A DNA stretch of 64,000 nucleotides from Shigella phage Sf19, in the sequence record MF327005; one strand, written 5' to 3'. Position 1 is the first letter of the stretch. Each line of letters opens with the position of its first letter. A program made the translations under genes and the position numbers. Positions 52,755-64,000 of the stretch are shown here, piece by piece. Under the pieces are notes generated by a model that saw only the letters and a list, made by a program, of their open reading frames with translations, ran no database searches and had not been told where the DNA came from.

Positions 52755-52785
52755 TGTCTGCATGTTTAACAAAATAGGAGTGCAA

Positions 52786-53334
52786 ATGAAGAAATTTGTT
52801 TTAGGTTTGTGCTTATTCTTTACAGCACATTTAGCTACAGCATCTGACTGTCCAGAGCTTACAATCAGCCAGAAAGTTAATATGTTAAAAGCATATAACT
52901 ATGGCGAAGGGCAGATGGGAAAAGGTTGGGGAATCCCTTTAGCAGCTATAGCCTTACAAGAGTCACAATTAGGTGTCATGTTAGAAAATAAAAAGACTCA
53001 TGATTATGGTGTTTTCCAGAATCACTTGAAGACTGTTGTAAAGCGTAACAAGGTATCTCCAAAGGTTGCTAAGAAGAAGCTAGTAAGTGACTTCCATTAC
53101 TCAGCGAAAGAGGCTCATAAGGAGCTATTATTCTGGACTAAGGTTCATGGTAACCCAGATGGAAAGTACTCTATGAAGCGTGTCCTAGCTTCTTATAATG
53201 CTGGTTACAAATACAAGATTCCAAAGGCTAGACAATACTCTCAAGATGTGTACAATAACATGAAACTGCTGGCTCAATGTGAGTTTGCAACAAACATTAA
53301 AAAGGTAAAATATGAGCGAATCAAAACAATTTGA
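52786..53334 (+). CDS. secreted lytic transglycosylase (endolysin candidate)
   Basis: Signal peptide MKKFVLGLCLFFTAHLATAS; SLT motifs ES (QESQLG), GVFQ and SYNAG; start set at ATG 52786 after AGGAG. Confidence 0.65.
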   Translation: MKKFVLGLCLFFTAHLATASDCPELTISQKVNMLKAYNYGEGQMGKGWGIPLAAIALQESQLGVMLENKKTHDYGVFQNHLKTVVKRNKVSPKVAKKKLVSDFHYSAKEAHKELLFWTKVHGNPDGKYSMKRVLASYNAGYKYKIPKARQYSQDVYNNMKLLAQCEFATNIKKVKYERIKTI

Positions 53335-55883: not shown

Positions 55884-56076
55884 TTTCTGCACTAAGTGTT
55901 CTGTTGAGATGTTTGGAAAAGATACAGGAGACTTAAAAGGTCTCTTTACAAAAGCAGAGTTTGAAGCTGGTTCAGCAATGCCAGTAATCTGTGAAGGCTG
56001 TGGTGCTTTATGGGTAGACCATGAAGGTAACCGAGTTAAACCCTCTGAAGATAACGAACGTTGGGAGCATTACTAA
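55876..56076 (+). CDS. small zinc-ribbon protein
   Basis: 66 aa with CTKCS...CEGCG. Confidence 0.4.
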   Translation: MADFCTKCSVEMFGKDTGDLKGLFTKAEFEAGSAMPVICEGCGALWVDHEGNRVKPSEDNERWEHY

Positions 56077-56077
56077 T

Positions 56078-56872
56078 ATGGGTATCGTAAAAATTATTAA
56101 AGGTGATATCTTTAAAGACTTTGATGGTAAGAAGTTTGATATCATTGGTCACGGTTGTAACTGCATGAACTTGATGGGTTCAGGTATCGCAGCAACAATT
56201 GCTAAACGCTACCCAAAAGCTTATGAAACTGACGCTGAGGTTTATGCTACAGTAGGTGGTGAAAATCATAACCCTAAGCACCTAATGCTTGGTAACATCT
56301 CTGTAGCACGTTTTAAGCAGGGTCGGATTGCTAACCTTTATACTCAGGTTATCACTGGCAAAGATGCACGGTACAATGCTTTAGAAGCAGCTTTGCAGCG
56401 TCTGAATAATTACTGCAAAGTCAACCAACTTAAGAAAGTTGGGCTTCCTATGATTTGTGCAGGGATTGGTGGTCTTGATAGTATGGCTGTGCTGTCCATT
56501 ATTAATCAGACTATGAAAGATGTTGACGTATATATGTATGTCTATGAAGATAAGATGTACAGTCAGTTGACTAGTCCTGTTACTGGTTGGGAGAACTTCA
56601 GTGAGCCTCAATATTTTGATGGTGTTGCTGTGGTAGGCAAGGATAAAGTTACCCTCAAGGTGAAGCGTAATGGCAAGGTACACACCAGTTACCCTCCGGT
56701 TGAGAAGTACAATCGAAGTAACGCTCAAGTTACCCACCCGTTACAAGGTCACCACCACAGAGCGGTAACGTTTGGTGATGATGCAAGTGTGTATATCAAT
56801 GCGACTACAGAAGAGTTTGCAGAAGATTATATCACACATGAAAACGTAAACTATGTTGAAGCACGTAACTAA
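56078..56872 (+). CDS. macro-domain-like protein with C-terminal extension
   Basis: IIKGDIF...FDIIGHGCNCMNLMGSGIAATIAKRYP matches macro pattern (GDIT...NAAN...GGGVA.AI) loosely; start set at ATG 56078. Confidence 0.45.
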   Translation: MGIVKIIKGDIFKDFDGKKFDIIGHGCNCMNLMGSGIAATIAKRYPKAYETDAEVYATVGGENHNPKHLMLGNISVARFKQGRIANLYTQVITGKDARYNALEAALQRLNNYCKVNQLKKVGLPMICAGIGGLDSMAVLSIINQTMKDVDVYMYVYEDKMYSQLTSPVTGWENFSEPQYFDGVAVVGKDKVTLKVKRNGKVHTSYPPVEKYNRSNAQVTHPLQGHHHRAVTFGDDASVYINATTEEFAEDYITHENVNYVEARN

Positions 56873-56901
56873 TAAGTTACCCAGATAAACATAGACAAGC
56901 C

Positions 56902-57125
56902 CTCCAAAGTTTGAGTTTAAAATCTCAGGTAAGGGGGGCTTTTTCATTTTAAATTTGTGCAGGTATAGTTGCATAGAACTCTGGACAGATTTCTTTAGCT
57001 GAACTCCAAAGGGAAAATTCATTTCAAATTTGTGCAGGTTTAGACTCCAAAGAGCTTTTTCATTTTCAATCTGTGCAGATGCAGTTGGACTCCAAAGGGA
57101 AAATTCATTTTCAAATTGTGCAGGT
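56902..57125. repeat. four tandem direct repeats, iteron-like
   Basis: Units at ~56902-56964, 57004-57039, 57045-57080, 57090-57125, each CTCCAAAG...TTTCATTT(T)CAA(A)TTTGTGCAGGT; followed by C-rich tract 57142-57178. Confidence 0.7.
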
Positions 57126-57298
57126 AGGTAGCTGTAGGAAACCAGCCCCACCATCCCCTCTTACTCCCCTTCCTCCCAAAAGTCAAGAGAAAAATTTGTA
57201 GAGAACTCAAAAATAATTTTTGACTAGGTTTCTGTTTTAGTGTACCCGCATACGTGCGTTCTATTCACGAAACATCAAAAATATTTTAAAAATTTTTG

Positions 57299-57327
57299 TT
57301 GACTTCATAAATCCAGTCTTATAGTAT
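57299..57327 (+). promoter_or_regulatory. early promoter class I (TTGACT-17-TAGTAT)
   Basis: Followed by ..CATCAACGGGAAACATCCC hairpin and conserved leader AACAATCCTAAACTGGAGAATCTAAAAATG. Confidence 0.55.
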
Positions 57328-57376
57328 TTGCATCAACGGGAAACATCCCAACAATCCTAAACTGGAGAATCTAAAA

Positions 57377-57583
57377 ATGTTATATCAACGTGAGTTAATG
57401 ATTGTTGACAACAACAAAACAAATAAACGTCGTTTCTATATGCTAATTTGTGATGTTTGGCAACGTATCTCAGAAAAGGATTTTGATGAATATGTTGATA
57501 CGTCAATCAGGTCTGATTGTTATTTGACAACTCATACAAGACAGTTTACAAGGCATACAGCAATTTATTATTACAACGTTTAA
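57377..57583 (+). CDS. early small protein
   Basis: 68-aa ORF after class I promoter-leader, GGAG RBS. Confidence 0.5.
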   Translation: MLYQRELMIVDNNKTNKRRFYMLICDVWQRISEKDFDEYVDTSIRSDCYLTTHTRQFTRHTAIYYYNV

Positions 57584-57595
57584 AAAGGCTTGACA

Positions 57596-57757
57596 ATGAT
57601 TAAAGAAAACGATTTAATACAATACAAAGATTTAGACGGATACCCAAAAATTGGTAAAGTCTTCTATCTCTATAAGTCTGCTATGGGTAATGACTGTATA
57701 GCCCTTACAAATAGCGACAAAATAACCATGAAAGATTTTATAAAAATTATTGCATAA
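57596..57757 (+). CDS. small ORF (below track threshold)
   Basis: 53-aa ORF MIKENDLIQYKD...; no own promoter cassette. Confidence 0.3.
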   Translation: MIKENDLIQYKDLDGYPKIGKVFYLYKSAMGNDCIALTNSDKITMKDFIKIIA

Positions 57758-57762
57758 AGTGC

Positions 57763-57791
57763 TTTACATGGGGTTTAAAAGCTAGTATCTT
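57763..57791 (+). promoter_or_regulatory. early promoter class II (TTTACA-17-TATCTT)
   Basis: Part of conserved cassette AGTGCTTTACATGGGGTTT...AAGCCCCAGATAAAGAGCTTTACCAACAATCCTAAACTGGAGAATCTAAAATG. Confidence 0.55.
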
Positions 57792-57841
57792 AAGCCCCAG
57801 ATAAAGAGCTTTACCAACAATCCTAAACTGGAGAATCTAAA

Positions 57842-58222
57842 ATGAAATATCGTGCGCCTAAATTTATCAACAAAGAAAACTTTCGTAGTATCTTAGAGGA
57901 AACTATGAAAGAAAACTTCAAAGGAAAAATAATTGTTGTTCACGCTTACAATTTTAAGTATGATGTTAATGGTAACCGTATTAACCACTACAAAGCTACT
58001 ATGCTTGATGGTACATTATCCGGTGAAAAAGCTATCATAAATGCTATTGCAGGACGTGGTAAAACTGTGATACGATGCGAAAAAAGACGCTATCAAGGCG
58101 GTAAATATGGGTATGAAGATGCAATGTACCATCTTGATAAAATGGGGTATGATATAGAGAAAGCTGGAGTATCTCAAACTATTGGTAGTGATGGCTACGT
58201 TACAGTTTTCAAAATTAACTAA
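57842..58222 (+). CDS. early protein
   Basis: 126-aa ORF after class II cassette. Confidence 0.55.
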   Translation: MKYRAPKFINKENFRSILEETMKENFKGKIIVVHAYNFKYDVNGNRINHYKATMLDGTLSGEKAIINAIAGRGKTVIRCEKRRYQGGKYGYEDAMYHLDKMGYDIEKAGVSQTIGSDGYVTVFKIN

Positions 58223-58231
58223 ATAAAGTCC

Positions 58232-58260
58232 TTTACATGGGGTTTATAGTTAGATAAGAT
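58232..58260 (+). promoter_or_regulatory. early promoter class II (TTTACA-17-TAAGAT)
   Basis: Conserved cassette copy. Confidence 0.55.
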
Positions 58261-58313
58261 AAGCCCCAGATAAAGAGCTTTACCAAACAATAACCTAAAC
58301 TGGAGTATCAAAA

Positions 58314-58571
58314 ATGGCTACTATCAAAAACATCATTGTATCTGCAAAATCTCGTGATGACGCTCGCGCAACTGCTAAAAAATTAAATGGTAAAGTGGTT
58401 GACAACGGAAAAGAATCTGCTGTAAGATGGGGCGTGAAATGTGATAAGGAAATTACTTTAAAACGTAGTTCCTATGACCTTTTCAAAGGTGTAAAAGCAA
58501 TCGGTAGAACTAACGTCTACACGAAGAAAGGTTATAAAATGCACTTATCATTAACTGACAATTTAATCTGA
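58314..58571 (+). CDS. early small protein
   Basis: 85-aa ORF after class II cassette. Confidence 0.55.
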   Translation: MATIKNIIVSAKSRDDARATAKKLNGKVVDNGKESAVRWGVKCDKEITLKRSSYDLFKGVKAIGRTNVYTKKGYKMHLSLTDNLI

Positions 58572-58579
58572 TAAAGTGC

Positions 58580-58608
58580 TTTACATGGGGTTTATAGTTA
58601 GATAATAT
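58580..58608 (+). promoter_or_regulatory. early promoter class II (TTTACA-17-TAATAT)
   Basis: Conserved cassette copy. Confidence 0.55.
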
Positions 58609-58662
58609 AAGCCCCAGATAAAGAGCTTTACTAACCAATAGTCCTAAACTGGAGAATCTAAA

Positions 58663-59175
58663 ATGAATTTTGTTGAAGCTACCTTTGAAGTCCAAAAAGA
58701 AAAATTCACTATCATCTATGAAGCTGTTAATATTTGTGAAGCATCCCATTGTGTGGAGAATTGGAAGTTTACCGATGAGCACAAAGGCGGGGTTACAATC
58801 AAACTTAAAAATCCAGAGCGTAACGGGTACAAATATGCAACTCCACAGCATTACAGCCTTTCACAATTGATGAGTGATTATGCTAAACAAGGCCGCGAAA
58901 ATCCATCTATAGAGGCTTACAAGAGCTTACAAGATGAATTACAAAGAGATTTAGAAGCTAACAGCTATGTGCTATTTGCAAAGGTAGAAGATAAAGAAGG
59001 TAATACGGTATTAAATAGCTTTTCACTTGCTTATGGTTTCGATTGGTGTTATCTTGACGGGGAAGATTTAGATTCACGATTAGAAGAGGAAGTGTCGAAC
59101 TCCGATGGAGAATCTGAAGTAATGGAACGTTTAGAAGCCTTGAAAGATTCTGTTATGAATATCTTTAATATCTAA
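58663..59175 (+). CDS. early protein
   Basis: 170-aa acidic ORF after class II cassette. Confidence 0.55.
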   Translation: MNFVEATFEVQKEKFTIIYEAVNICEASHCVENWKFTDEHKGGVTIKLKNPERNGYKYATPQHYSLSQLMSDYAKQGRENPSIEAYKSLQDELQRDLEANSYVLFAKVEDKEGNTVLNSFSLAYGFDWCYLDGEDLDSRLEEEVSNSDGESEVMERLEALKDSVMNIFNI

Positions 59176-59181
59176 AAGTGC

Positions 59182-59210
59182 TTTACATGGGGTTATCAAG
59201 TTGATAAGAT
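59182..59210 (+). promoter_or_regulatory. early promoter class II (TTTACA-17-TAAGAT)
   Basis: Conserved cassette copy. Confidence 0.55.
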
Positions 59211-59259
59211 AGCCCCAGATAAAGAGCTTTACAAACAATCCTAAACTGGAGAACCTAAA

Positions 59260-59556
59260 ATGTTTATTGCCGCAAACGTTAGAACTAAATTAAGCCAGCT
59301 ATTAAGCAATATTCAATTCATTGAATCCATGCGCCGTACTTCTGAAGCCGTAGAGTGGTATCATGGAAAGATTAACAAAAAAGAAGTAATAATTTGTGTA
59401 TGGAACTTTTGCAAAGAATACAAAAAACCATTGCTTCAGGTTGATATATATGATAACACTAATAAGTCATCGATTAAGACTACTAGAGATATGGTTGATT
59501 CATATGAAATTAGTCACACTGGTAAAGTATTCCACAAAGGTAAAAACAAATGTTAA
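59260..59556 (+). CDS. early small protein
   Basis: 98-aa ORF after class II cassette. Confidence 0.55.
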   Translation: MFIAANVRTKLSQLLSNIQFIESMRRTSEAVEWYHGKINKKEVIICVWNFCKEYKKPLLQVDIYDNTNKSSIKTTRDMVDSYEISHTGKVFHKGKNKC

Positions 59557-59897
59557 TCACATACACTGCAATTTTTATCTCTATTGTGGCGCTCTATAAA
59601 GCTTTGCAAGCGCACAGTATAGCTAATAAGGCACTTACAAGGGATTTAAAAATAAACCTTGTACGGGGCTTTTTAGAGCGTTTGAGCTTAGAACAATTGA
59701 AACGTTTAGAGATGAGCTTTCGATTTAAAGCAGAAACATACCGGATTGATAACATTCTAGATGGTGATTTTAAATTAATCAGTGATTATGACATACTTCT
59801 TGAGTCAATTCAAGACATAAACCTGAAAGATTATTATATTGTAATAGCGCAAGAAATTAATAAAAAAGAGCTTGCAATGCAGAATCAAAACAAGTAA
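59550..59897 (+). CDS. early protein
   Basis: 115-aa ORF, 7-nt overlap with upstream gene; 3' end contains next promoter. Confidence 0.45.
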   Translation: MLITYTAIFISIVALYKALQAHSIANKALTRDLKINLVRGFLERLSLEQLKRLEMSFRFKAETYRIDNILDGDFKLISDYDILLESIQDINLKDYYIVIAQEINKKELAMQNQNK

Positions 59898-59900
59898 AGT
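59872..59900 (+). promoter_or_regulatory. early promoter class I (TTGCAA-17-TAAAGT)
   Basis: Embedded in last codons of upstream gene; identical 44-bp block recurs at 63322-63365. Confidence 0.55.
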
Positions 59901-59955
59901 ATTCATCAACGGGGCAAGTTATAAGCCCCAACAATCCTAAACTGGAGAATCTAAA

Positions 59956-60228
59956 ATGTATACTACTAATGACGGTCGAACTTTGAACGTAACTTTAAAA
60001 CACTATGTAGACGGTGTATTAAACTTTGAAGAGTTAAGAGCAGAACAGCACCTATTAGATTGGCAGGTAGCAGGTCTACAAAAAACCGCCACAGGATATG
60101 GAAAGAAAATTCCTACATCTTGGAAAGTTCGATACCTTGGAAAGTTACGCAGAATTTATCAAGATGTTTACAGTAATAGCGGTGTAAGTTACATTATTGT
60201 TAGTGGTAAAAAATTGTATTTAGTCTAA
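59956..60228 (+). CDS. early small protein
   Basis: 90-aa ORF after class I cassette. Confidence 0.55.
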   Translation: MYTTNDGRTLNVTLKHYVDGVLNFEELRAEQHLLDWQVAGLQKTATGYGKKIPTSWKVRYLGKLRRIYQDVYSNSGVSYIIVSGKKLYLV

Positions 60229-60236
60229 TAAATTGC

Positions 60237-60265
60237 TTTACATGGGGTTATCAAGTTGCTAAGAT
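60237..60265 (+). promoter_or_regulatory. early promoter class II (TTTACA-17-TAAGAT)
   Basis: Conserved cassette copy. Confidence 0.55.
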
Positions 60266-60317
60266 AGCCCCAGATAAAGAGATTTATCTAAAACTAACCT
60301 AAACTGGAGACTAGAAA

Positions 60318-60725
60318 ATGACTAATGTTAATCACAAAGAAGTTGCAATTTTGAAAGCACGTTTGACCATTAACCGCATCAACATTGTAACATCAGCAGC
60401 ACCAGACGAAACACTACATAATATCATCGGTAAAATTCAGGGCGCAGTAGTAGACACAAAACAGCTTAAAGAATCCTTGCAAGATGTAGCAGCAGGAGCT
60501 ATAATTGACGGTGCTCAGTATGAGATGAAAGAAATGCTGTCAAAGTCAAAAGTAATGAATAAAGAACTTGACTTGAAAATGTTTAGATTTGCTGTTAAAG
60601 TGTGGCTATGTGTTGATTTTGATGCAAACTTTGCAATTGCTGATTTCTTTGCAACATGGTTACAGCGTAACTTACCGGTTGAAGTTTTCCGTGAAATCTG
60701 CGATGCAATTTATTCAGAGATTTGA
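60318..60725 (+). CDS. early protein
   Basis: 135-aa ORF after class II cassette. Confidence 0.55.
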   Translation: MTNVNHKEVAILKARLTINRINIVTSAAPDETLHNIIGKIQGAVVDTKQLKESLQDVAAGAIIDGAQYEMKEMLSKSKVMNKELDLKMFRFAVKVWLCVDFDANFAIADFFATWLQRNLPVEVFREICDAIYSEI

Positions 60726-60754
60726 TTGACATTGCAAAAGCATAGTAGTAGAGT
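60726..60754 (+). promoter_or_regulatory. early promoter class I (TTGACA-17-TAGAGT)
   Basis: Followed by CATCAACGGGGCAAGTTAGAAGCCCC hairpin and conserved leader. Confidence 0.5.
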
Positions 60755-60810
60755 ACTCATCAACGGGGCAAGTTAGAAGCCCCAACAATCCTAAACTGGA
60801 GAATCTGAAA

Positions 60811-61059
60811 ATGTTTAATATGTTGAATATCCCTGATACATGCCGACTCTTAACACAACTTGATAACCTTGGCAAGCCGTTTTTATATCATATGCCAGAT
60901 AACACTGCAAAAACTTACAGTTACATTGTAAACCGTTTTACGGCTTATGGTTCAAAGTATGGCTATAATGTCAAGACTCAAAAAGTGACTTTGTTCACAA
61001 GTATTGAAGAGTTACCAACTGTTGCCGTTAAACTAATCTTTACAAAGAAAACTAAATAA
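60811..61059 (+). CDS. early small protein
   Basis: 82-aa ORF after class I cassette. Confidence 0.55.
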   Translation: MFNMLNIPDTCRLLTQLDNLGKPFLYHMPDNTAKTYSYIVNRFTAYGSKYGYNVKTQKVTLFTSIEELPTVAVKLIFTKKTK

Positions 61060-61064
61060 AGTGC

Positions 61065-61093
61065 TTTACATGGGGTTTATAGTTAGATAAGAT
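61065..61093 (+). promoter_or_regulatory. early promoter class II (TTTACA-17-TAAGAT)
   Basis: Conserved cassette copy. Confidence 0.55.
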
Positions 61094-61143
61094 AAGCCCC
61101 AGATAAAGAGCTTTACCAACAATCCTAAACTGGAGAATCTAAA

Positions 61144-61701
61144 ATGAAATGCTTTCATGGTACTACACAAGAAAACTTTGTAAACCTTATCAATGGCGGT
61201 GATAAACCATCAGGAGCTTGGAATTGCTCTGATATGGATGGATGTTTTTACGTCTACCCTGTTAACAAGTTCTATGATGTAGAGAATCTGGATGACGAAC
61301 AAATCACAGATGAAGGTATTAGAAACGCGCTTGATAGCGCAAGCATTACAGCAGCCTATCAAATGAAGTCACAAAAGCTTGTTATCTTGGAACTGGATAT
61401 TCCAGAAGATGATTTACAAGATGACTGGAGCTGTGAGAACATGAGCGACGTAGCAAGCTTTACAGAATATTTCGATAAAGAATGGATTAAAAAGGTTTAC
61501 ACAACTGAATTTAATGCTATGTATGCACCTTTCTTTGTCCCTAACCTAAACAATAGAAATTTAGGATATGTACCAGACGAACTACGCAACATTGCAGAAA
61601 TAGTCCAACGTAGTGATGGGATGAGCAATGTATATTGTGATATCTTTGACACCATGCAATGCAACGTAACAGAAACGGTTATAAACGACTTAACAGCATA
61701 A
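61144..61701 (+). CDS. early protein
   Basis: 185-aa ORF after class II cassette. Confidence 0.55.
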   Translation: MKCFHGTTQENFVNLINGGDKPSGAWNCSDMDGCFYVYPVNKFYDVENLDDEQITDEGIRNALDSASITAAYQMKSQKLVILELDIPEDDLQDDWSCENMSDVASFTEYFDKEWIKKVYTTEFNAMYAPFFVPNLNNRNLGYVPDELRNIAEIVQRSDGMSNVYCDIFDTMQCNVTETVINDLTA

Positions 61702-61764
61702 ACCATAGAATCACACCAGTTCACTAGAAAAGCCCCGCACAGGGGCTTACAAGAGGCTTAAAAG

Positions 61765-61995
61765 ATGCTTACAACAATCTATCTTATCTTATCTATCTGT
61801 AATGGTTCACAATGTGACTTTAAAGGTTTAGAAGAGTTTACAGGTAGCGAAAATAATGCTATTGTTGCCTGTCAGATAGCAAGGCAAGACTACCCAACAT
61901 CGGATGATATCCAATGTTACTATAAGTCAGAAGATGATGAAGGTATTTACTTTGATAGTGTGAATGGTGAATATGAGATTCTTATAGAAAAGTAG
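61765..61995 (+). CDS. early small protein
   Basis: 76-aa ORF with hydrophobic N-terminus; own leader with hairpin AGCCCC-GCACA-GGGGCT and AAGAGG RBS. Confidence 0.45.
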   Translation: MLTTIYLILSICNGSQCDFKGLEEFTGSENNAIVACQIARQDYPTSDDIQCYYKSEDDEGIYFDSVNGEYEILIEK

Positions 61996-62024
61996 TTGAC
62001 ACTGAAAACGCAAGAAAGTAAAGT
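61996..62024 (+). promoter_or_regulatory. early promoter class I (TTGACA-17-TAAAGT)
   Basis: Followed by CATCAACGGGAAACATCCC hairpin and conserved leader. Confidence 0.55.
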
Positions 62025-62073
62025 ATTCATCAACGGGAAACATCCCAACAATCCTAAACTGGAGATTCAAAAA

Positions 62074-62295
62074 ATGTTGCAAGTTCTTAACGTAAAAACC
62101 ATTGATTTTAAATTCTCAAATGTTCGTCGTACCTATTTACAGCCGTTTAGTAAACCTGTTAGGATTCCCAACGATGACGCTAAAAAGTTGATTGATGAAA
62201 TTCTAGCTAATGGCGGTTATCTGGCTAGTCATAAGCAGTATAATGATGAGGATGGAAGCCTGATAAATGAGTTTACATATTATTACTACAAATAA
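62074..62295 (+). CDS. early small protein
   Basis: Start set at ATG 62074 after the conserved leader; track ORF begins upstream within the promoter. Confidence 0.5.
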   Translation: MLQVLNVKTIDFKFSNVRRTYLQPFSKPVRIPNDDAKKLIDEILANGGYLASHKQYNDEDGSLINEFTYYYYK

Positions 62296-62307
62296 CTAAT
62301 AAAGTGC

Positions 62308-62336
62308 TTTACATGGGGTTTATAGTTAGCTAAGAT
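62308..62336 (+). promoter_or_regulatory. early promoter class II (TTTACA-17-TAAGAT)
   Basis: Conserved cassette copy. Confidence 0.55.
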
Positions 62337-62386
62337 AAGCCCCAGATAAAGAGCTTTACCAACAATCCTAAACTGGAGAATCTAGA

Positions 62387-62584
62387 ATGTTATCACTGAT
62401 GCAAAAACTTTCTACCTTGTGGTGTTTAAAAGGTGTAGAGTGTAACCTTAACATGGAAGGTTCAAAGATAGACCTAAAAATAGTATACAATGGAGAAATA
62501 CTATTCTCACAGAATAGCAGTCATCCACACTTCAAAGATAATGCAATTATGGCCGTGAATAATCTGATGGATAGAATTTATTAA
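62387..62584 (+). CDS. early small protein
   Basis: 65-aa ORF after class II cassette. Confidence 0.5.
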   Translation: MLSLMQKLSTLWCLKGVECNLNMEGSKIDLKIVYNGEILFSQNSSHPHFKDNAIMAVNNLMDRIY

Positions 62585-62589
62585 AGTGC

Positions 62590-62618
62590 TTTACATGGGG
62601 TTTAAAAGCTAGTATCTT
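62590..62618 (+). promoter_or_regulatory. early promoter class II (TTTACA-17-TATCTT)
   Basis: Conserved cassette copy. Confidence 0.55.
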
Positions 62619-62669
62619 AAGCCCCAGATAAAGAGCTTTACCAACAATCCTAAACTGGAGAATCTGAAA

Positions 62670-63011
62670 ATGGCCTATGTAACAATTATCACCGATAAAG
62701 AAAATTCGTCATGGTCTACCCAAGTTAACGACAAAATGAAACCTATGCAGTGTCTCAAGTACTTTGAGCAATGGAACAGGGGAGAAGATGTAAGCCCGTT
62801 TCAAGTGATGCAGATTGTACATGTTGACAATGAAGGGAATAAAACTACCCTTAACACTGAATACTATGCTACACGTTTCGAAACTCGCAAATCAGCTATG
62901 CAGGAGTTAAGAGAAAAGGGATATAGTCACATTGCCGCGCTCATTTGGTCTGATTTGCTTAAAAAACAGTCATTAACCTATGTTAAGCCAGAAAAAATCT
63001 TTATAAGCTAA
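62670..63011 (+). CDS. early protein
   Basis: 113-aa ORF after class II cassette. Confidence 0.55.
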   Translation: MAYVTIITDKENSSWSTQVNDKMKPMQCLKYFEQWNRGEDVSPFQVMQIVHVDNEGNKTTLNTEYYATRFETRKSAMQELREKGYSHIAALIWSDLLKKQSLTYVKPEKIFIS

Positions 63012-63139
63012 TCAACAACTTATAAAAATCTTTTGAAAAACTATTGACAATGCCCCTTGACAAGTGTAACTTTGTTCGAGGGGGTTTATCTAAAAGGGAT
63101 TAACTTAATAGATTCTTTATAGATAAGCGTAAAAAGTAC

Positions 63140-63168
63140 TTGCAAAGGTCTAATCATATCTATATAGT
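63140..63168 (+). promoter_or_regulatory. early promoter class I variant (TTGCAA-17-TATAGT)
   Basis: Followed by leader ...CCTAAACTGGAGAATCACTAAATG. Confidence 0.5.
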
Positions 63169-63207
63169 GTCTTCAAAAGGCAACTTCCTAAACTGGAGAA
63201 TCACTAA

Positions 63208-63348
63208 ATGTTAGATATCATTAAAAGCCCTATCCTTTGCGGTATGATTGTTTCTGTTGTGTTGCCATTAGCAATGCTCATCATTGGTGAAATCTCAGAT
63301 AAACTTTTTGATAAAAAACTACTTGCAATGCAGAATCAAAACAAGTAA
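63208..63348 (+). CDS. small membrane peptide (below track threshold)
   Basis: 46-aa hydrophobic ORF; C-terminal MQNQNK codons identical to end of 59550-59897. Confidence 0.35.
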   Translation: MLDIIKSPILCGMIVSVVLPLAMLIIGEISDKLFDKKLLAMQNQNK

Positions 63349-63351
63349 AGT
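63323..63351 (+). promoter_or_regulatory. early promoter class I (TTGCAA-17-TAAAGT)
   Basis: Exact duplicate of block at 59872-59900. Confidence 0.55.
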
Positions 63352-63412
63352 ATTCATCAACGGGGAGGGAGACCTCCCCACTAAACAAAATTCCTAAACT
63401 GGAGAATCTAGA

Positions 63413-63940
63413 ATGAATAAGTTTAATGCTGTTAATGCAATCCGTAGCCGTGAAGTGATGAGCAAGCCTTGTAAAGATACTTGGGAATTTACCTTAAAGA
63501 GCAAAGTTTTTGCAGTTATCACAAAAGGGGAAGATAAGCAGTTTTATGTACACCGACCAAATGTAAAAGCGGTAACAGCCAACAACTTTATGGGGGCTAT
63601 TTCTCTTATTCTGAATGATTATATGGCTATAGTCGCAGAAATTCACGAAATGGCTATTAAGGCAACTAAAAACGAGTTAAACCGCTTTAAAATGGCTTAT
63701 GAGCGCTCTATTAAGTCCCATAATCTTTTTATTGCAATCCACTATACAGGCATGTATGCTATGGGAACGGGTAACCAACAATACCCACTCTATGAAGTGG
63801 AAAACATCTTTACAAGTGACTACCCAACAACTAATTTTAAAATTACGTTAGGGGAAGCATTAAATAGGGGAATTAGGCTTTACGAACAATCTTTAAAAAA
63901 CTTAGAAAATTCCCTTGACGAAATCATCACAAATCTATAA
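63413..63940 (+). CDS. early protein
   Basis: 175-aa ORF after class I cassette. Confidence 0.55.
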   Translation: MNKFNAVNAIRSREVMSKPCKDTWEFTLKSKVFAVITKGEDKQFYVHRPNVKAVTANNFMGAISLILNDYMAIVAEIHEMAIKATKNELNRFKMAYERSIKSHNLFIAIHYTGMYAMGTGNQQYPLYEVENIFTSDYPTTNFKITLGEALNRGIRLYEQSLKNLENSLDEIITNL

Positions 63941-63943
63941 AGT
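63915..63943 (+). promoter_or_regulatory. early promoter class I (TTGACG-17-TAAAGT)
   Basis: -10 overlaps upstream stop codon; conserved leader runs to window end, so the array continues. Confidence 0.5.
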
Positions 63944-64000
63944 ACTTATCAACGGGGAGGGAATGACCTTCCCCAACAATCCTAAACTGGAGACTAGAAA

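Follow-up and report, generated by a model that had tools for sequence, protein, structure and literature searches.

An array of small accessory genes behind recurrent promoter-like cassettes in Shigella phage Sf19

RESULTS

The 64,000 nucleotides of Shigella phage Sf19 analyzed here (sequence record MF327005; the whole stretch is called the window) end in an array of small genes, at positions 57299 to 64000, in which most genes stand behind one of two recurrent intergenic cassettes. We put the probability at about 75% that the region represents a series of expression cassettes for accessory genes, of the type described in T4-type phages as promoter-early stem-loops (PeSLs). Each unit would combine a promoter for the sigma-70 of the host with a short G4/C4 stem-loop and a leader, unstructured and common to the units, that ends in GGAG, 8 to 9 nt, and the ATG. 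Because the cassettes share exact runs of 12 to 81 nt, homologous recombination between them would delete, duplicate, insert, or re-promote whole genes. An earlier sequence-only reading of this DNA had proposed such cassettes, and every testable part of that interpretation was supported, with the corrections of detail given below.

The closest relative of the window is Shigella phage Sf13 (98.6% identity at 100% coverage in a megablast search with 57000-64000, which matched 242 phage records), through which the window phage is placed in Mooglevirus, within the Ounavirinae, the Felix-O1-like myoviruses. We used Sf13 (locus L001; window coordinate = L001 + 44999) to read past the window end, where the array extends by two genes (S and T) and one more leader copy and then meets a terminator. 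The comparison set comprised 13 genomes: the window, Sf13, Sf14, Sf18, KPS64, Mordin, Michonne, Maleficent, Moogle, SUSP1, SUSP2, mistaenkt, and Felix O1. From these we gathered 175 cassettes, and copies from Erwinia phage Pistou (Kolesnikvirus, L014) were compared as well. About 290 Ounavirinae genomes have been sequenced; the analysis of junctions and concerted evolution covers these 13.

Census of the repeats

The leader core CCTAAACTGGAGA, allowing at most one mismatch, occurs 15 times between 57356 and 63993, always on the plus strand, and not once in the remaining 57 kb (0.11 copies expected from shuffles). The class-specific boxes TTTACATGGGG and CCCCAGATAAAGAG have eight copies each, found only in the array across the 64-kb window, and the box ATCAACGGGG has six array copies plus two chance matches in coding sequence. 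When the upstream regions were aligned on the ATG, eight of the 15 cassettes belonged to class II and six to class I, and one was odd. Class II cassettes precede the genes starting at 57842, 58314, 58663, 59260, 60318, 61144, 62387, and 62670; class I cassettes precede those starting at 57377, 59956, 60811, 62074, and 63413, and the sixth class I copy is truncated by the window end. The sequence-only reading had counted at least 13 genes, each behind a conserved cassette of one of two classes. Both classes are present, besides one odd promoter without a hairpin, and the count rises to 15 leader copies and 14 complete genes with a cassette. The three genes without one (57596-57757, 59550-59897, and 61765-61995) each lie directly behind their upstream gene.

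A cassette spans from the upstream stop codon, which abuts it or lies inside it, to the downstream ATG. Set amid 17 ORFan genes, cassettes make up 17% of the array and nearly all of its intergenic DNA. The class II box TAAAGAGCTTTA had been described as a 12-bp palindrome. This description did not survive: the box is an imperfect, 5+2+5 inverted repeat whose right half varies among relatives, and it nearly repeats, in direct orientation, the sequence with which the cassette itself begins, TAAAGTGCTTTAC.

Promoter-like elements and hairpins

In class II, the distance from the -35 element TTTACA to a TAnnnT hexamer is exactly 17 bp in 82 of the 88 copies from the 13 genomes (16 or 18 bp in the other six), and this spacing is kept despite 25 loop sequence variants. 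Directly after CTTTACA comes a 9-bp stem, GGGG(T/C)TNNN...NNNA(G/A)CCCC, of -10 to -13.5 kcal/mol, which spans the spacer and the -10 hexamer. The stem covaries. Compensatory types occur at pairs 5, 7, 8, and 9; 93% of its cells are paired, versus 33 to 64% when the 3' arm is slid 1 to 3 columns 5'-ward and 20 to 58% when it is slid 3'-ward (MAFFT alignment, 25 distinct variants); and its covariation score is 0.108 versus 0.042 in shuffles, none of 500 shuffles scoring as high. Class II copies in the Erwinia phage carry a compensatory GGTG/CACC. The box CCCCAGATAAAGAG, 3' of the stem, is invariant, including in Felix O1, and nearly invariant in Pistou.

Class I has the order TTGACA, TTGCAA, TTGACT, or TTGACG, 17 bp, and TAnnnT, followed by 10 nt (AYTYATCAAC; 11 nt in the CAGAC variant) and then a hairpin, in all pattern-matching copies. 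The inner stems are unrelated between copies (GGGA/UCCC; GGGGC/GCCCC; GGGGAGG/CCUCCCC; GGGGAGGG/CCUUCCCC; GGGGAAG/CUUCCCC). At two sites the segment from -35 to -10 lies within the upstream open reading frame (ORF), at 59872-59900 in gene H and 63313-63341 in gene Q, with the stop codon inside the -10 hexamer TAAAGT. Because the class I promoter sits in the 3' ends of these two genes, their products, although unrelated, share the C terminus LAMQNQNK*.

Terminators flank the array. An intrinsic terminator follows the upstream macro-domain gene (56897-56941, plus strand; -20.4 kcal/mol, z = -3.9, then UUUUUCAUUUU); it matches t13 of Felix O1 and sets the upstream limit of the array. A second lies after gene T, at L001 19625-19642 in Sf13. 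Because intrinsic terminators lie on both sides, the array needs promoters of its own. End-point reverse transcription-PCR (RT-PCR) reported for Felix O1 assigns to the 5-minute class ORFs 16, 20, 21, and 22, which are homologous to F, J, P, and R. This gives partial, coarse support for early expression, which in the window phage itself is a prediction. Thus, the cassettes proposed earlier as promoter-leader units are borne out at the sequence level by the 17-bp spacing in 82/88 class II and all pattern-matching class I copies, by the bracketing terminators, and by the 5-minute ORFs of Felix O1.

Class II transcripts would start just 3' of the stem, at the A of CCCC-AGATAAAG (CCCC-AGAT), 7 to 8 nt after the -10 hexamer. 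Because this predicted start lies 3' of the stem, the class II hairpin would be promoter DNA. It would be transcribed only when RNA polymerase reads through from upstream, and in such RNA it could act as an attenuator or shield a 3' end. A class I mRNA would start at the CA 7 to 8 nt after the -10 hexamer, leaving about 3 free nucleotides and then a 5'-terminal hairpin. Work on the ompA 5' stem-loop established that a 5'-terminal hairpin with few free nucleotides protects Escherichia coli mRNA from 5'-end-dependent attack by RNase E. The class I hairpin would protect its mRNA from 5'-end-dependent decay in the same way. We also considered the middle-promoter box of T4 MotA, which is (a/t)(a/t)(a/t)TGCTTtA centered at -30, 11 to 13 bp before the -10 hexamer. 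Many class II copies contain TGCTTTA, but 19 bp before the -10 hexamer and with a variable G (TCC, TAC, TTC), and we rejected this candidate.

Leader and concerted evolution

In all copies the leader ends in GGAG, followed by 8 to 9 nt and the ATG, a uniformity that would be expected to give the genes equal translation initiation. Mooglevirus, Suspvirus, and Felixounavirus all have the 12-mer CCTAAACTGGAG without change, whereas the sequence on either side of it drifts. GGAG is the only part of the leader able to pair with the 3' end of 16S rRNA. A more extended pairing was rejected, as the longest run complementary to E. coli rrsH is 6 nt, below that of most shuffled leaders. The leader core is predicted to fold as a 3-bp hairpin, UCC-UAAACU-GGA, that pairs the Shine-Dalgarno (SD) sequence (RNAfold; for example, at 57355-57366). 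The predicted SD pairing is 0.72 in the array versus a median of 0.40 in 31 other window genes, which is a hint only, since the array copies are not independent. A permissive search against known RNA families (Rfam) returned only one chance microRNA match (E = 0.8). We also rejected RegB-type cleavage of the GGAG leaders: the Mordin homologue of 52762-53334 is annotated "similar to T4 RegB," but Pfam shows no RegB signature. The product of 52762-53334 is a secreted-looking protein with a sub-threshold Pfam match to SLT (lytic transglycosylase).

The flanks of the leader are lineage specific. In Mooglevirus genomes the commonest are CCAACAAT...AATCTAAA, the spacer between SD and ATG being mostly AATCTAAA, and in SUSP2 and mistaenkt they are GCCCACTT or AAATCAAT...ATTCAAAA, with a spacer of mostly ATTCAAAA. 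Therefore, paralogous copies within one genome evolve together; recombination between cassettes would also keep the copies within one genome alike. In Pistou the whole leader differs (AACAACCCTTATAAAGGAATCAAAACATG), with the promoter-hairpin architecture and the AGATAAAGAG box retained; its leaders have another sequence yet keep CCUU-AUA-AAGG or CCUC-AAA-GAGG.

Cassette junctions among relatives

Gene families were defined by all-against-all BLASTP and junctions were located by pairwise blastn, with the crossovers in Sf14 and KPS64 placed by diagnostic single nucleotide polymorphisms (SNPs). "Loss" or "lacks" here denotes a presence/absence difference, to which no direction of gain or loss was assigned, and a duplicate of P at the extreme end of the Sf14 record was left out of the counts, as it may be an assembly artifact. 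Gene order (B C D E F G H I J K L M N O P Q R S T) is the same throughout the 13 genomes, which differ by whole units of cassette and gene. Most junctions lie inside cassettes, with 23 to 110 bp of shared sequence and at least eight equal-register events.

In Sf14, which lacks D-E-F, the cassette accounts for the 89 bp by which the alignments on either side overlap, and SNPs put the crossover inside AAGCCCCAGATAAAGAGCTTTAC. The overlap is 97 bp in Moogle, which lacks D-E, 110 bp in mistaenkt, which lacks D, and 91 to 95 bp in KPS64, the Mordin group, and SUSP1, which lack O; the crossover in KPS64 falls between AAGCCCC and GGAGAATCT. Other crossovers are confined to the leader. Moogle lacks K through a 31-bp leader crossover that leaves L behind a class I instead of a class II cassette, and it lacks N-O through one of 29 bp that leaves P behind class I. 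Leader-only crossovers of 23 bp account for the lack of Q in Moogle, SUSP1, and SUSP2, and one of 25 bp for the lack of S in SUSP2. Between M and N, the Mordin group carries one more unit, U, and its N stands behind class II. In Sf18, K is replaced by an unrelated gene of equal length, an event that we group with the microhomology or register-shifted joins. Overlapping homology at junctions together with hybrid cassettes is the signature of recombination between repeats.

The cassettes had been suggested to serve as recombination substrates for shuffling early genes. Gain, loss, duplication, replacement, and promoter swaps with cassette junctions all occur, but no reordering was found, and gene order is conserved. 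Cassette-bounded swaps across related phages, hybrid cassettes included, are thus present in a region that is syntenic in order and not invariant in content.

Gene products

The 19 array proteins (B to T) belong to 19 different PHROGs, all of function unknown. Pfam gave no match at E <= 0.01 for any of them, bar one sub-threshold chance match, and all-against-all BLASTP gave no cross-hits between array genes, in agreement with their earlier description as unrelated small ORFs. In a published CRISPRi-ART screen of SUSP1, carried out in a laboratory strain poor in defense systems, all 17 of 17 array orthologues (AVU07_agp095 to agp111, 66199-72919) scored "Not Fit," which fits accessory genes and their patchy distribution among relatives. 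Because the guides tile the ribosome-binding site (RBS) region, many of them must match several cassettes. A host-takeover or anti-defense role, which the sequence-only reading had suggested from the profile of the genes, is plausible for the predicted proteins; the evidence that bears on it is the dispensability of the SUSP1 orthologues.

Protein L has invariant H5-G6-T7, Y36, and E83, resembling the H-Y-E motif of ADP-ribosyltransferases. Its homologues occur in these phages only; it had no PDB sequence match, and a Foldseek search with a poor AlphaFold model (predicted local distance difference test score, 60.5) gave nothing below E = 1. Proteins F and R likewise had no PDB sequence match. 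Gene T lies at L001 19332-19583 in Sf13; according to the Felix O1 report and the re-annotation of SUSP1, its Felix O1 homologue Gp23 was detected in virions by mass spectrometry, which is unexpected for a gene of an early array. In Pistou, an array gene at L014 4767-5000 is annotated as T4-type "immunity to superinfection," which suggests that such arrays capture genes from unrelated phages.

Layout of the array

Directly upstream of the array stands the macro-domain gene (56021-56872; phrog_335, annotated "phosphatase"), whose product could remove ADP-ribose marks made by host defenses. Between the terminator behind it and the first early promoter is a 0.5-kb noncoding gap, in which a direct repeat of about 43 nt, CTCCAAAGGGAAAATTCATTT(T)CAAATTGTGCAGGT, occurs four times (56922-57125). 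This repeat DNA is kept in 10 of 12 relatives and could represent iterons or regulator binding sites; a minus-strand ORF, gp58, annotated over it in Sf13 and relatives is probably no real gene.

All array features lie on the plus strand. The class I cassette before B (57299-57376) has TTGACT-17-TAGTAT, CATCAAC, a hairpin at 57338-57349, and the leader core at 57356-57367. It is followed by gene B (57377-57583; 68 aa, phrog_5293, function unknown), which is present in 13/13 genomes, and by gene C (57596-57757; 53 aa), which is without a cassette of its own and is missing from KPS64, Mordin, Michonne, and Maleficent. The class II cassette before D (57758-57841) has its -35 element at 57763-57768, the -10 hexamer TATCTT at 57786-57791, a hairpin at 57770-57798, the predicted start at A 57799, the AGATAAAGAG box, and the leader; it has an exact 81-nt run in common with the cassette before P. 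Gene D (57842-58222; 126 aa) is missing from Sf14, Moogle, mistaenkt, and Felix O1. Next come a class II cassette with TTTACA-17-TAAGAT (58223-58313) and gene E (58314-58571; 85 aa), which has a tandem duplicate in Michonne and is missing from Sf14, Moogle, and Felix O1, and then a class II cassette with TTTACA-17-TAATAT (58572-58662) and gene F (58663-59175; 170 aa), missing from Sf14. The class II cassette before G (59176-59259; TTTACA-17-TAAGAT, with TG before the -10 hexamer) is the right-hand parent of the Sf14 deletion junction. Gene G (59260-59556; 98 aa) is overlapped by gene H (59550-59897; 115 aa), which is without a cassette and whose final codons (LAMQNQNK*) double as the class I promoter of the unit that follows.

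That class I cassette, before I (59872-59955), has TTGCAA at 59872-59877, TAAAGT with the H stop codon at 59895-59900, ATTCATCAAC, a hairpin at 59911-59929, and the leader. Gene I (59956-60228; 90 aa) is affected in Sf18 by a 50-bp deletion that takes out hairpin, leader, and start codon. A class II cassette with the variant box TAAAGAGATTTA (60229-60317) precedes gene J (60318-60725; 135 aa), and a class I cassette with TTGACA-17-TAGAGT (60726-60810) precedes gene K (60811-61059; 82 aa), which is missing from Moogle and Felix O1 and has an unrelated 82-aa gene in its place in Sf18. The class II cassette at 61060-61143 serves gene L (61144-61701; 185 aa), an ORFan restricted to these phages; in Moogle, L stands behind the class I cassette of K instead. 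Gene M (61765-61995; 76 aa), without a cassette, has its own RBS, AAGAGG, with a hairpin at 61730-61748 upstream. A class I cassette with TTGACA-17-TAAAGT (61996-62073) precedes gene N (62074-62295; 73 aa), which stands behind class II in the Mordin group.

Class II cassettes at 62296-62386 and 62585-62669 precede gene O (62387-62584; 65 aa), which is restricted to the window, Sf13, Sf18, and Sf14, and gene P (62670-63011; 113 aa). Hairpins of opposite polarity (CCCC..GGGG) follow L (61730-61748) and P (63053-63084); the latter is terminator-like, has UUUAUCU behind it, and may divide the array into two units of transcription. The odd cassette before Q (63140-63207) has TTGCAA-17-TATAGT and the same leader core without a G4/C4 hairpin. 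Gene Q (63208-63348; 46 aa), a predicted membrane protein, is missing from Moogle, SUSP1, and SUSP2, and its C terminus, LAMQNQNK*, is again the class I promoter of the next unit. That cassette, before R (63313-63412), has TTGCAA at 63313-63318 and the hairpin GGGGAGG-GAGA-CCTCCCC, and it is followed by gene R (63413-63940; 175 aa). The last class I cassette (63915-64000), with TTGACG-17-TAAAGT and an 8-bp hairpin containing a G-T pair, precedes gene S beyond the window end. In Sf13, about 1.5 kb without annotated genes (L001 19643-21163) runs from the terminator at the array end to a convergent terminator of opposite-strand genes. The idea that the array lies at a physical genome end and is injected first was not supported: UAB_Phi87 has 608-bp terminal repeats, but its class I cassette lies about 17 kb into the record.

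DISCUSSION

Several observations weigh against reading the region as an array of PeSL-type cassettes. TTTACA with a TAAGAT- or TATCTT-type -10 hexamer makes only 9 of 12 consensus matches, and such promoter-like sites are frequent by chance (43 found versus 27 in shuffles in a simple scan). No U-tract follows the cassette hairpins, and their terminator activity is therefore doubtful. The RT-PCR of Felix O1 is a coarse, end-point assay in which array ORFs 17, 19, and 23 fall in the 25-minute class, and we found no transcript mapping of any Ounavirinae phage in the literature. Some junctions depart from equal register. The tandem duplication of E in Michonne is a microhomology or register-shifted join (leader-ATG to CTTTACA), as is the 50-bp deletion at I in Sf18; in Mordin (L002 6585-6730) a truncated, gene-less class II cassette is fused in tandem to a full one by a join of this kind; and, likewise, in KPS64 (L008 8300-8520) a 131-bp duplication has produced a gene-less class I cassette, with only a Q fragment between the copies. 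Moreover, selection against broken genes alone would drive junctions into intergenic DNA, which here is nearly all cassette. Finally, the invariance of CCTAAACTGGAG across genera exceeds what a 4-nt SD sequence needs, and the cassette model leaves it unexplained.

That last point is the basis for taking the leader as the key element, a start-associated sequence that a protein or RNA factor, of the phage or of the host, would recognize in order to control translation of the whole gene set together, with promoters and recombination secondary. The 12-mer CCTAAACTGGAG is invariant in three genera although only GGAG pairs with 16S rRNA, the core mini-hairpin (U)CC-UAAACU-GG(A) pairs the SD sequence and has analogues in the Erwinia phage leaders, the predicted SD pairing is 0.72 against the median of 0.40 for the 31 genes, and the authors of the Mordin genome drew the same analogy with start-associated sequences (SASs). 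However, no candidate factor was identified, the "RegB-like" gene of Mordin being without a RegB signature; the mini-hairpin has only 3 to 4 bp; the array copies are not independent; and gene conversion plus selection for an open, A/C-rich initiation region could hold the core constant. We consider this explanation unlikely as the main one, and it is compatible with the promoter and recombination model. Slightly less probable still is a single long early transcript from the promoter at 57299, in which the repeats would act at the RNA level alone (as hairpins for processing or stability, together with a shared initiation region, like the RNase III sites between the early genes of T7) and the -35 and -10 hexamers incidental. 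The first cassette does have the most favorable surroundings for a promoter, an A/T-rich tract upstream that comes directly after the terminator and the 0.5-kb gap; the hairpins are intergenic and without U-tracts, which makes read-through likely; and promoter-like hexamers are common by chance in AT-rich DNA. But an RNA-only element would not need TAnnnT at 17 bp from TTTACA over 25 divergent loops in four genera, and the class I arrangement TTGACA/TTGCAA-17-TAnnnT is kept even over upstream coding sequence. Stems of 4 to 9 bp are also too short for RNase III, and the terminator-like hairpin after P (63053-63084) would end such a transcript.

Two further explanations concern the repeats themselves. 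The TAAAG-NN-CTTTA inverted repeats that flank the class II core promoter (over the -35 element and at about +3 to +14, some 46 bp apart) might be operators at which a phage repressor shuts off early transcription. Each class II cassette has two such dyad-like sites, and CCCCAGATAAAGAG does not vary, even as far away as Felix O1 and the Erwinia phages. Yet the right half-site is variable (ATTTA, CTATA, CTTTG, ATTCA), the upstream copy often reads AAATTGC or AAAGTCC, which breaks the dyad, and the boxes fit a direct repeat, AAAG(T/A)GCTTTAC, better. As class I is without them and no repressor candidate was found, we give the operators little credence. Passive leftovers from tandem duplication of an ancestral gene with its upstream region deserve almost none. 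Tandem duplication of a unit does occur (E in Michonne), but this explanation is already contradicted by the unrelated intervening genes (19 PHROGs, no BLASTP cross-hits), by repeats that stay near-identical across genera with about 47% genome identity, and by the compensatory changes in the stems.

If the region is an array of PeSL-type cassettes, it offers a testable map of predicted early promoters and start sites in a group, Felix O1 and its relatives, that is widely used in Salmonella typing, biocontrol, and therapy and whose transcriptional program has been described as unknown. It also accounts for the fact that genomes that are otherwise collinear vary most in this 7-kb region. The cassettes mark sites at which accessory genes could be removed or swapped without harm (all were dispensable in the SUSP1 screen), and they provide matched expression signals for payload genes. 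A caution is that knock-down guides directed at the RBS of one array gene will cross-target others. More speculatively, the leader core with its SD-pairing hairpin may be a recognition element for a dedicated factor that governs translation or decay of all the accessory genes, placing them in one post-transcriptional regulon, and cassettes may excise as mini-circles that move ORFans between co-infecting Ounavirinae. We think this improbable; if true, the array would be an integron-like gene-capture platform without an integrase.

The repeats have been recorded before. The Felix O1 paper (2010) lists a 57-bp repeat, CTTTACATGGGGCTTAAAAGTCTGTAAAGTAAGCCCCAGATAAAGAGCTTTACCACT (class II), and a 39-bp repeat, TTGACACTGG...ACACATCAAC (class I), between genes 15 and 21; its promoter list omits them, and temporal regulation is stated to be unknown. 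The wV8 record labels the class II cassette DR_7/DR_9. These direct repeats of Felix O1 and wV8 are the same elements as ours, recorded as repeats only and not as promoters, hairpins, or recombination sites. The Mordin announcement (2015) noted a 26-bp repeat upstream of eight genes and likened it to the SASs of mycobacteriophages, giving no role. In distant relatives of Felix O1, two to six near-identical TTGACA-N17-TAgAAT repeats occur in a variable 11-kb region thought to be early (2015, PMC4309531). Those repeats differ from the cassettes in being promoters only, fewer, and of different sequence, with no stem-loop or shared leader described and no junction analysis.

The SASs and extended SASs (ESASs) of cluster K mycobacteriophages have a 13-bp consensus, GGGATAGGAGCCC, 3 to 7 bp before the start codon (Pope et al. 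2011, PMC3203893). Like the leader core, an SAS is a short, asymmetric, SD-containing repeat just before the ATG of nonstructural genes from different families, conserved beyond its pairing to rRNA and with outer symmetry (GGG..CCC in SASs, TCC..GGA here), and an inverted repeat directly precedes about half of the SAS copies. The two resemble each other in position only: the sequence differs (here CCTAAACTGGAG), and neither the phages nor the hosts are related. The arms of ESASs show no covariation as RNA stems, whereas the window stems do, and SASs are scattered over half a genome with no recombination role described, whereas the window copies form one array.

The closer parallel is with PeSLs, which are known from the T4-type phages RB49/phi1 and also from PST/T4 and nt-1/KVP40 (Arbiol et al. 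2010, PMC2839356; Comeau et al. 2014, PMC4122927) and whose promoter activity, terminator activity, and mini-circles have been shown experimentally (PMC2839356, PMC4122927). The analogy drawn by the sequence-only reading is well founded, as these papers describe the same layout, including GGGG..CCCC stems between -35 and -10. Both elements are intergenic units from stop codon to ATG, with a sigma-70-type promoter and with an SD sequence and the ATG at the 3' end. Both carry a GGGG..CCCC stem-loop with G-T pairs; the PeSL stem lies mostly between -35 and -10 or over -10, as in class II. Both cluster among small ORFans, where close relatives differ by insertion, deletion, replacement, and crossovers inside the motif. 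The cassettes differ from PeSLs in belonging to another phage subfamily, in forming two discrete classes joined by one invariant leader, in the class I hairpin, which would lie within the transcript, and in hairpins without a U-tract; their promoters and hairpins are predicted from sequence. We detected no sequence homology to T4-like PeSLs: blastn matched 287 records with class II and 93 with class I, all from Ounavirinae-type phages of enterobacterial or Erwinia hosts. Because only such phages were found, the resemblance is convergence or analogy and not common descent, and a PeSL mode of gene gain and loss would have arisen independently outside the T4-like phages. We found no paper in the literature that applies the PeSL concept to the Ounavirinae. 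Thus, to repeats that were already known, the cassette reading adds not a new principle but a nonhomologous instance of the PeSL type outside the T4-like phages.

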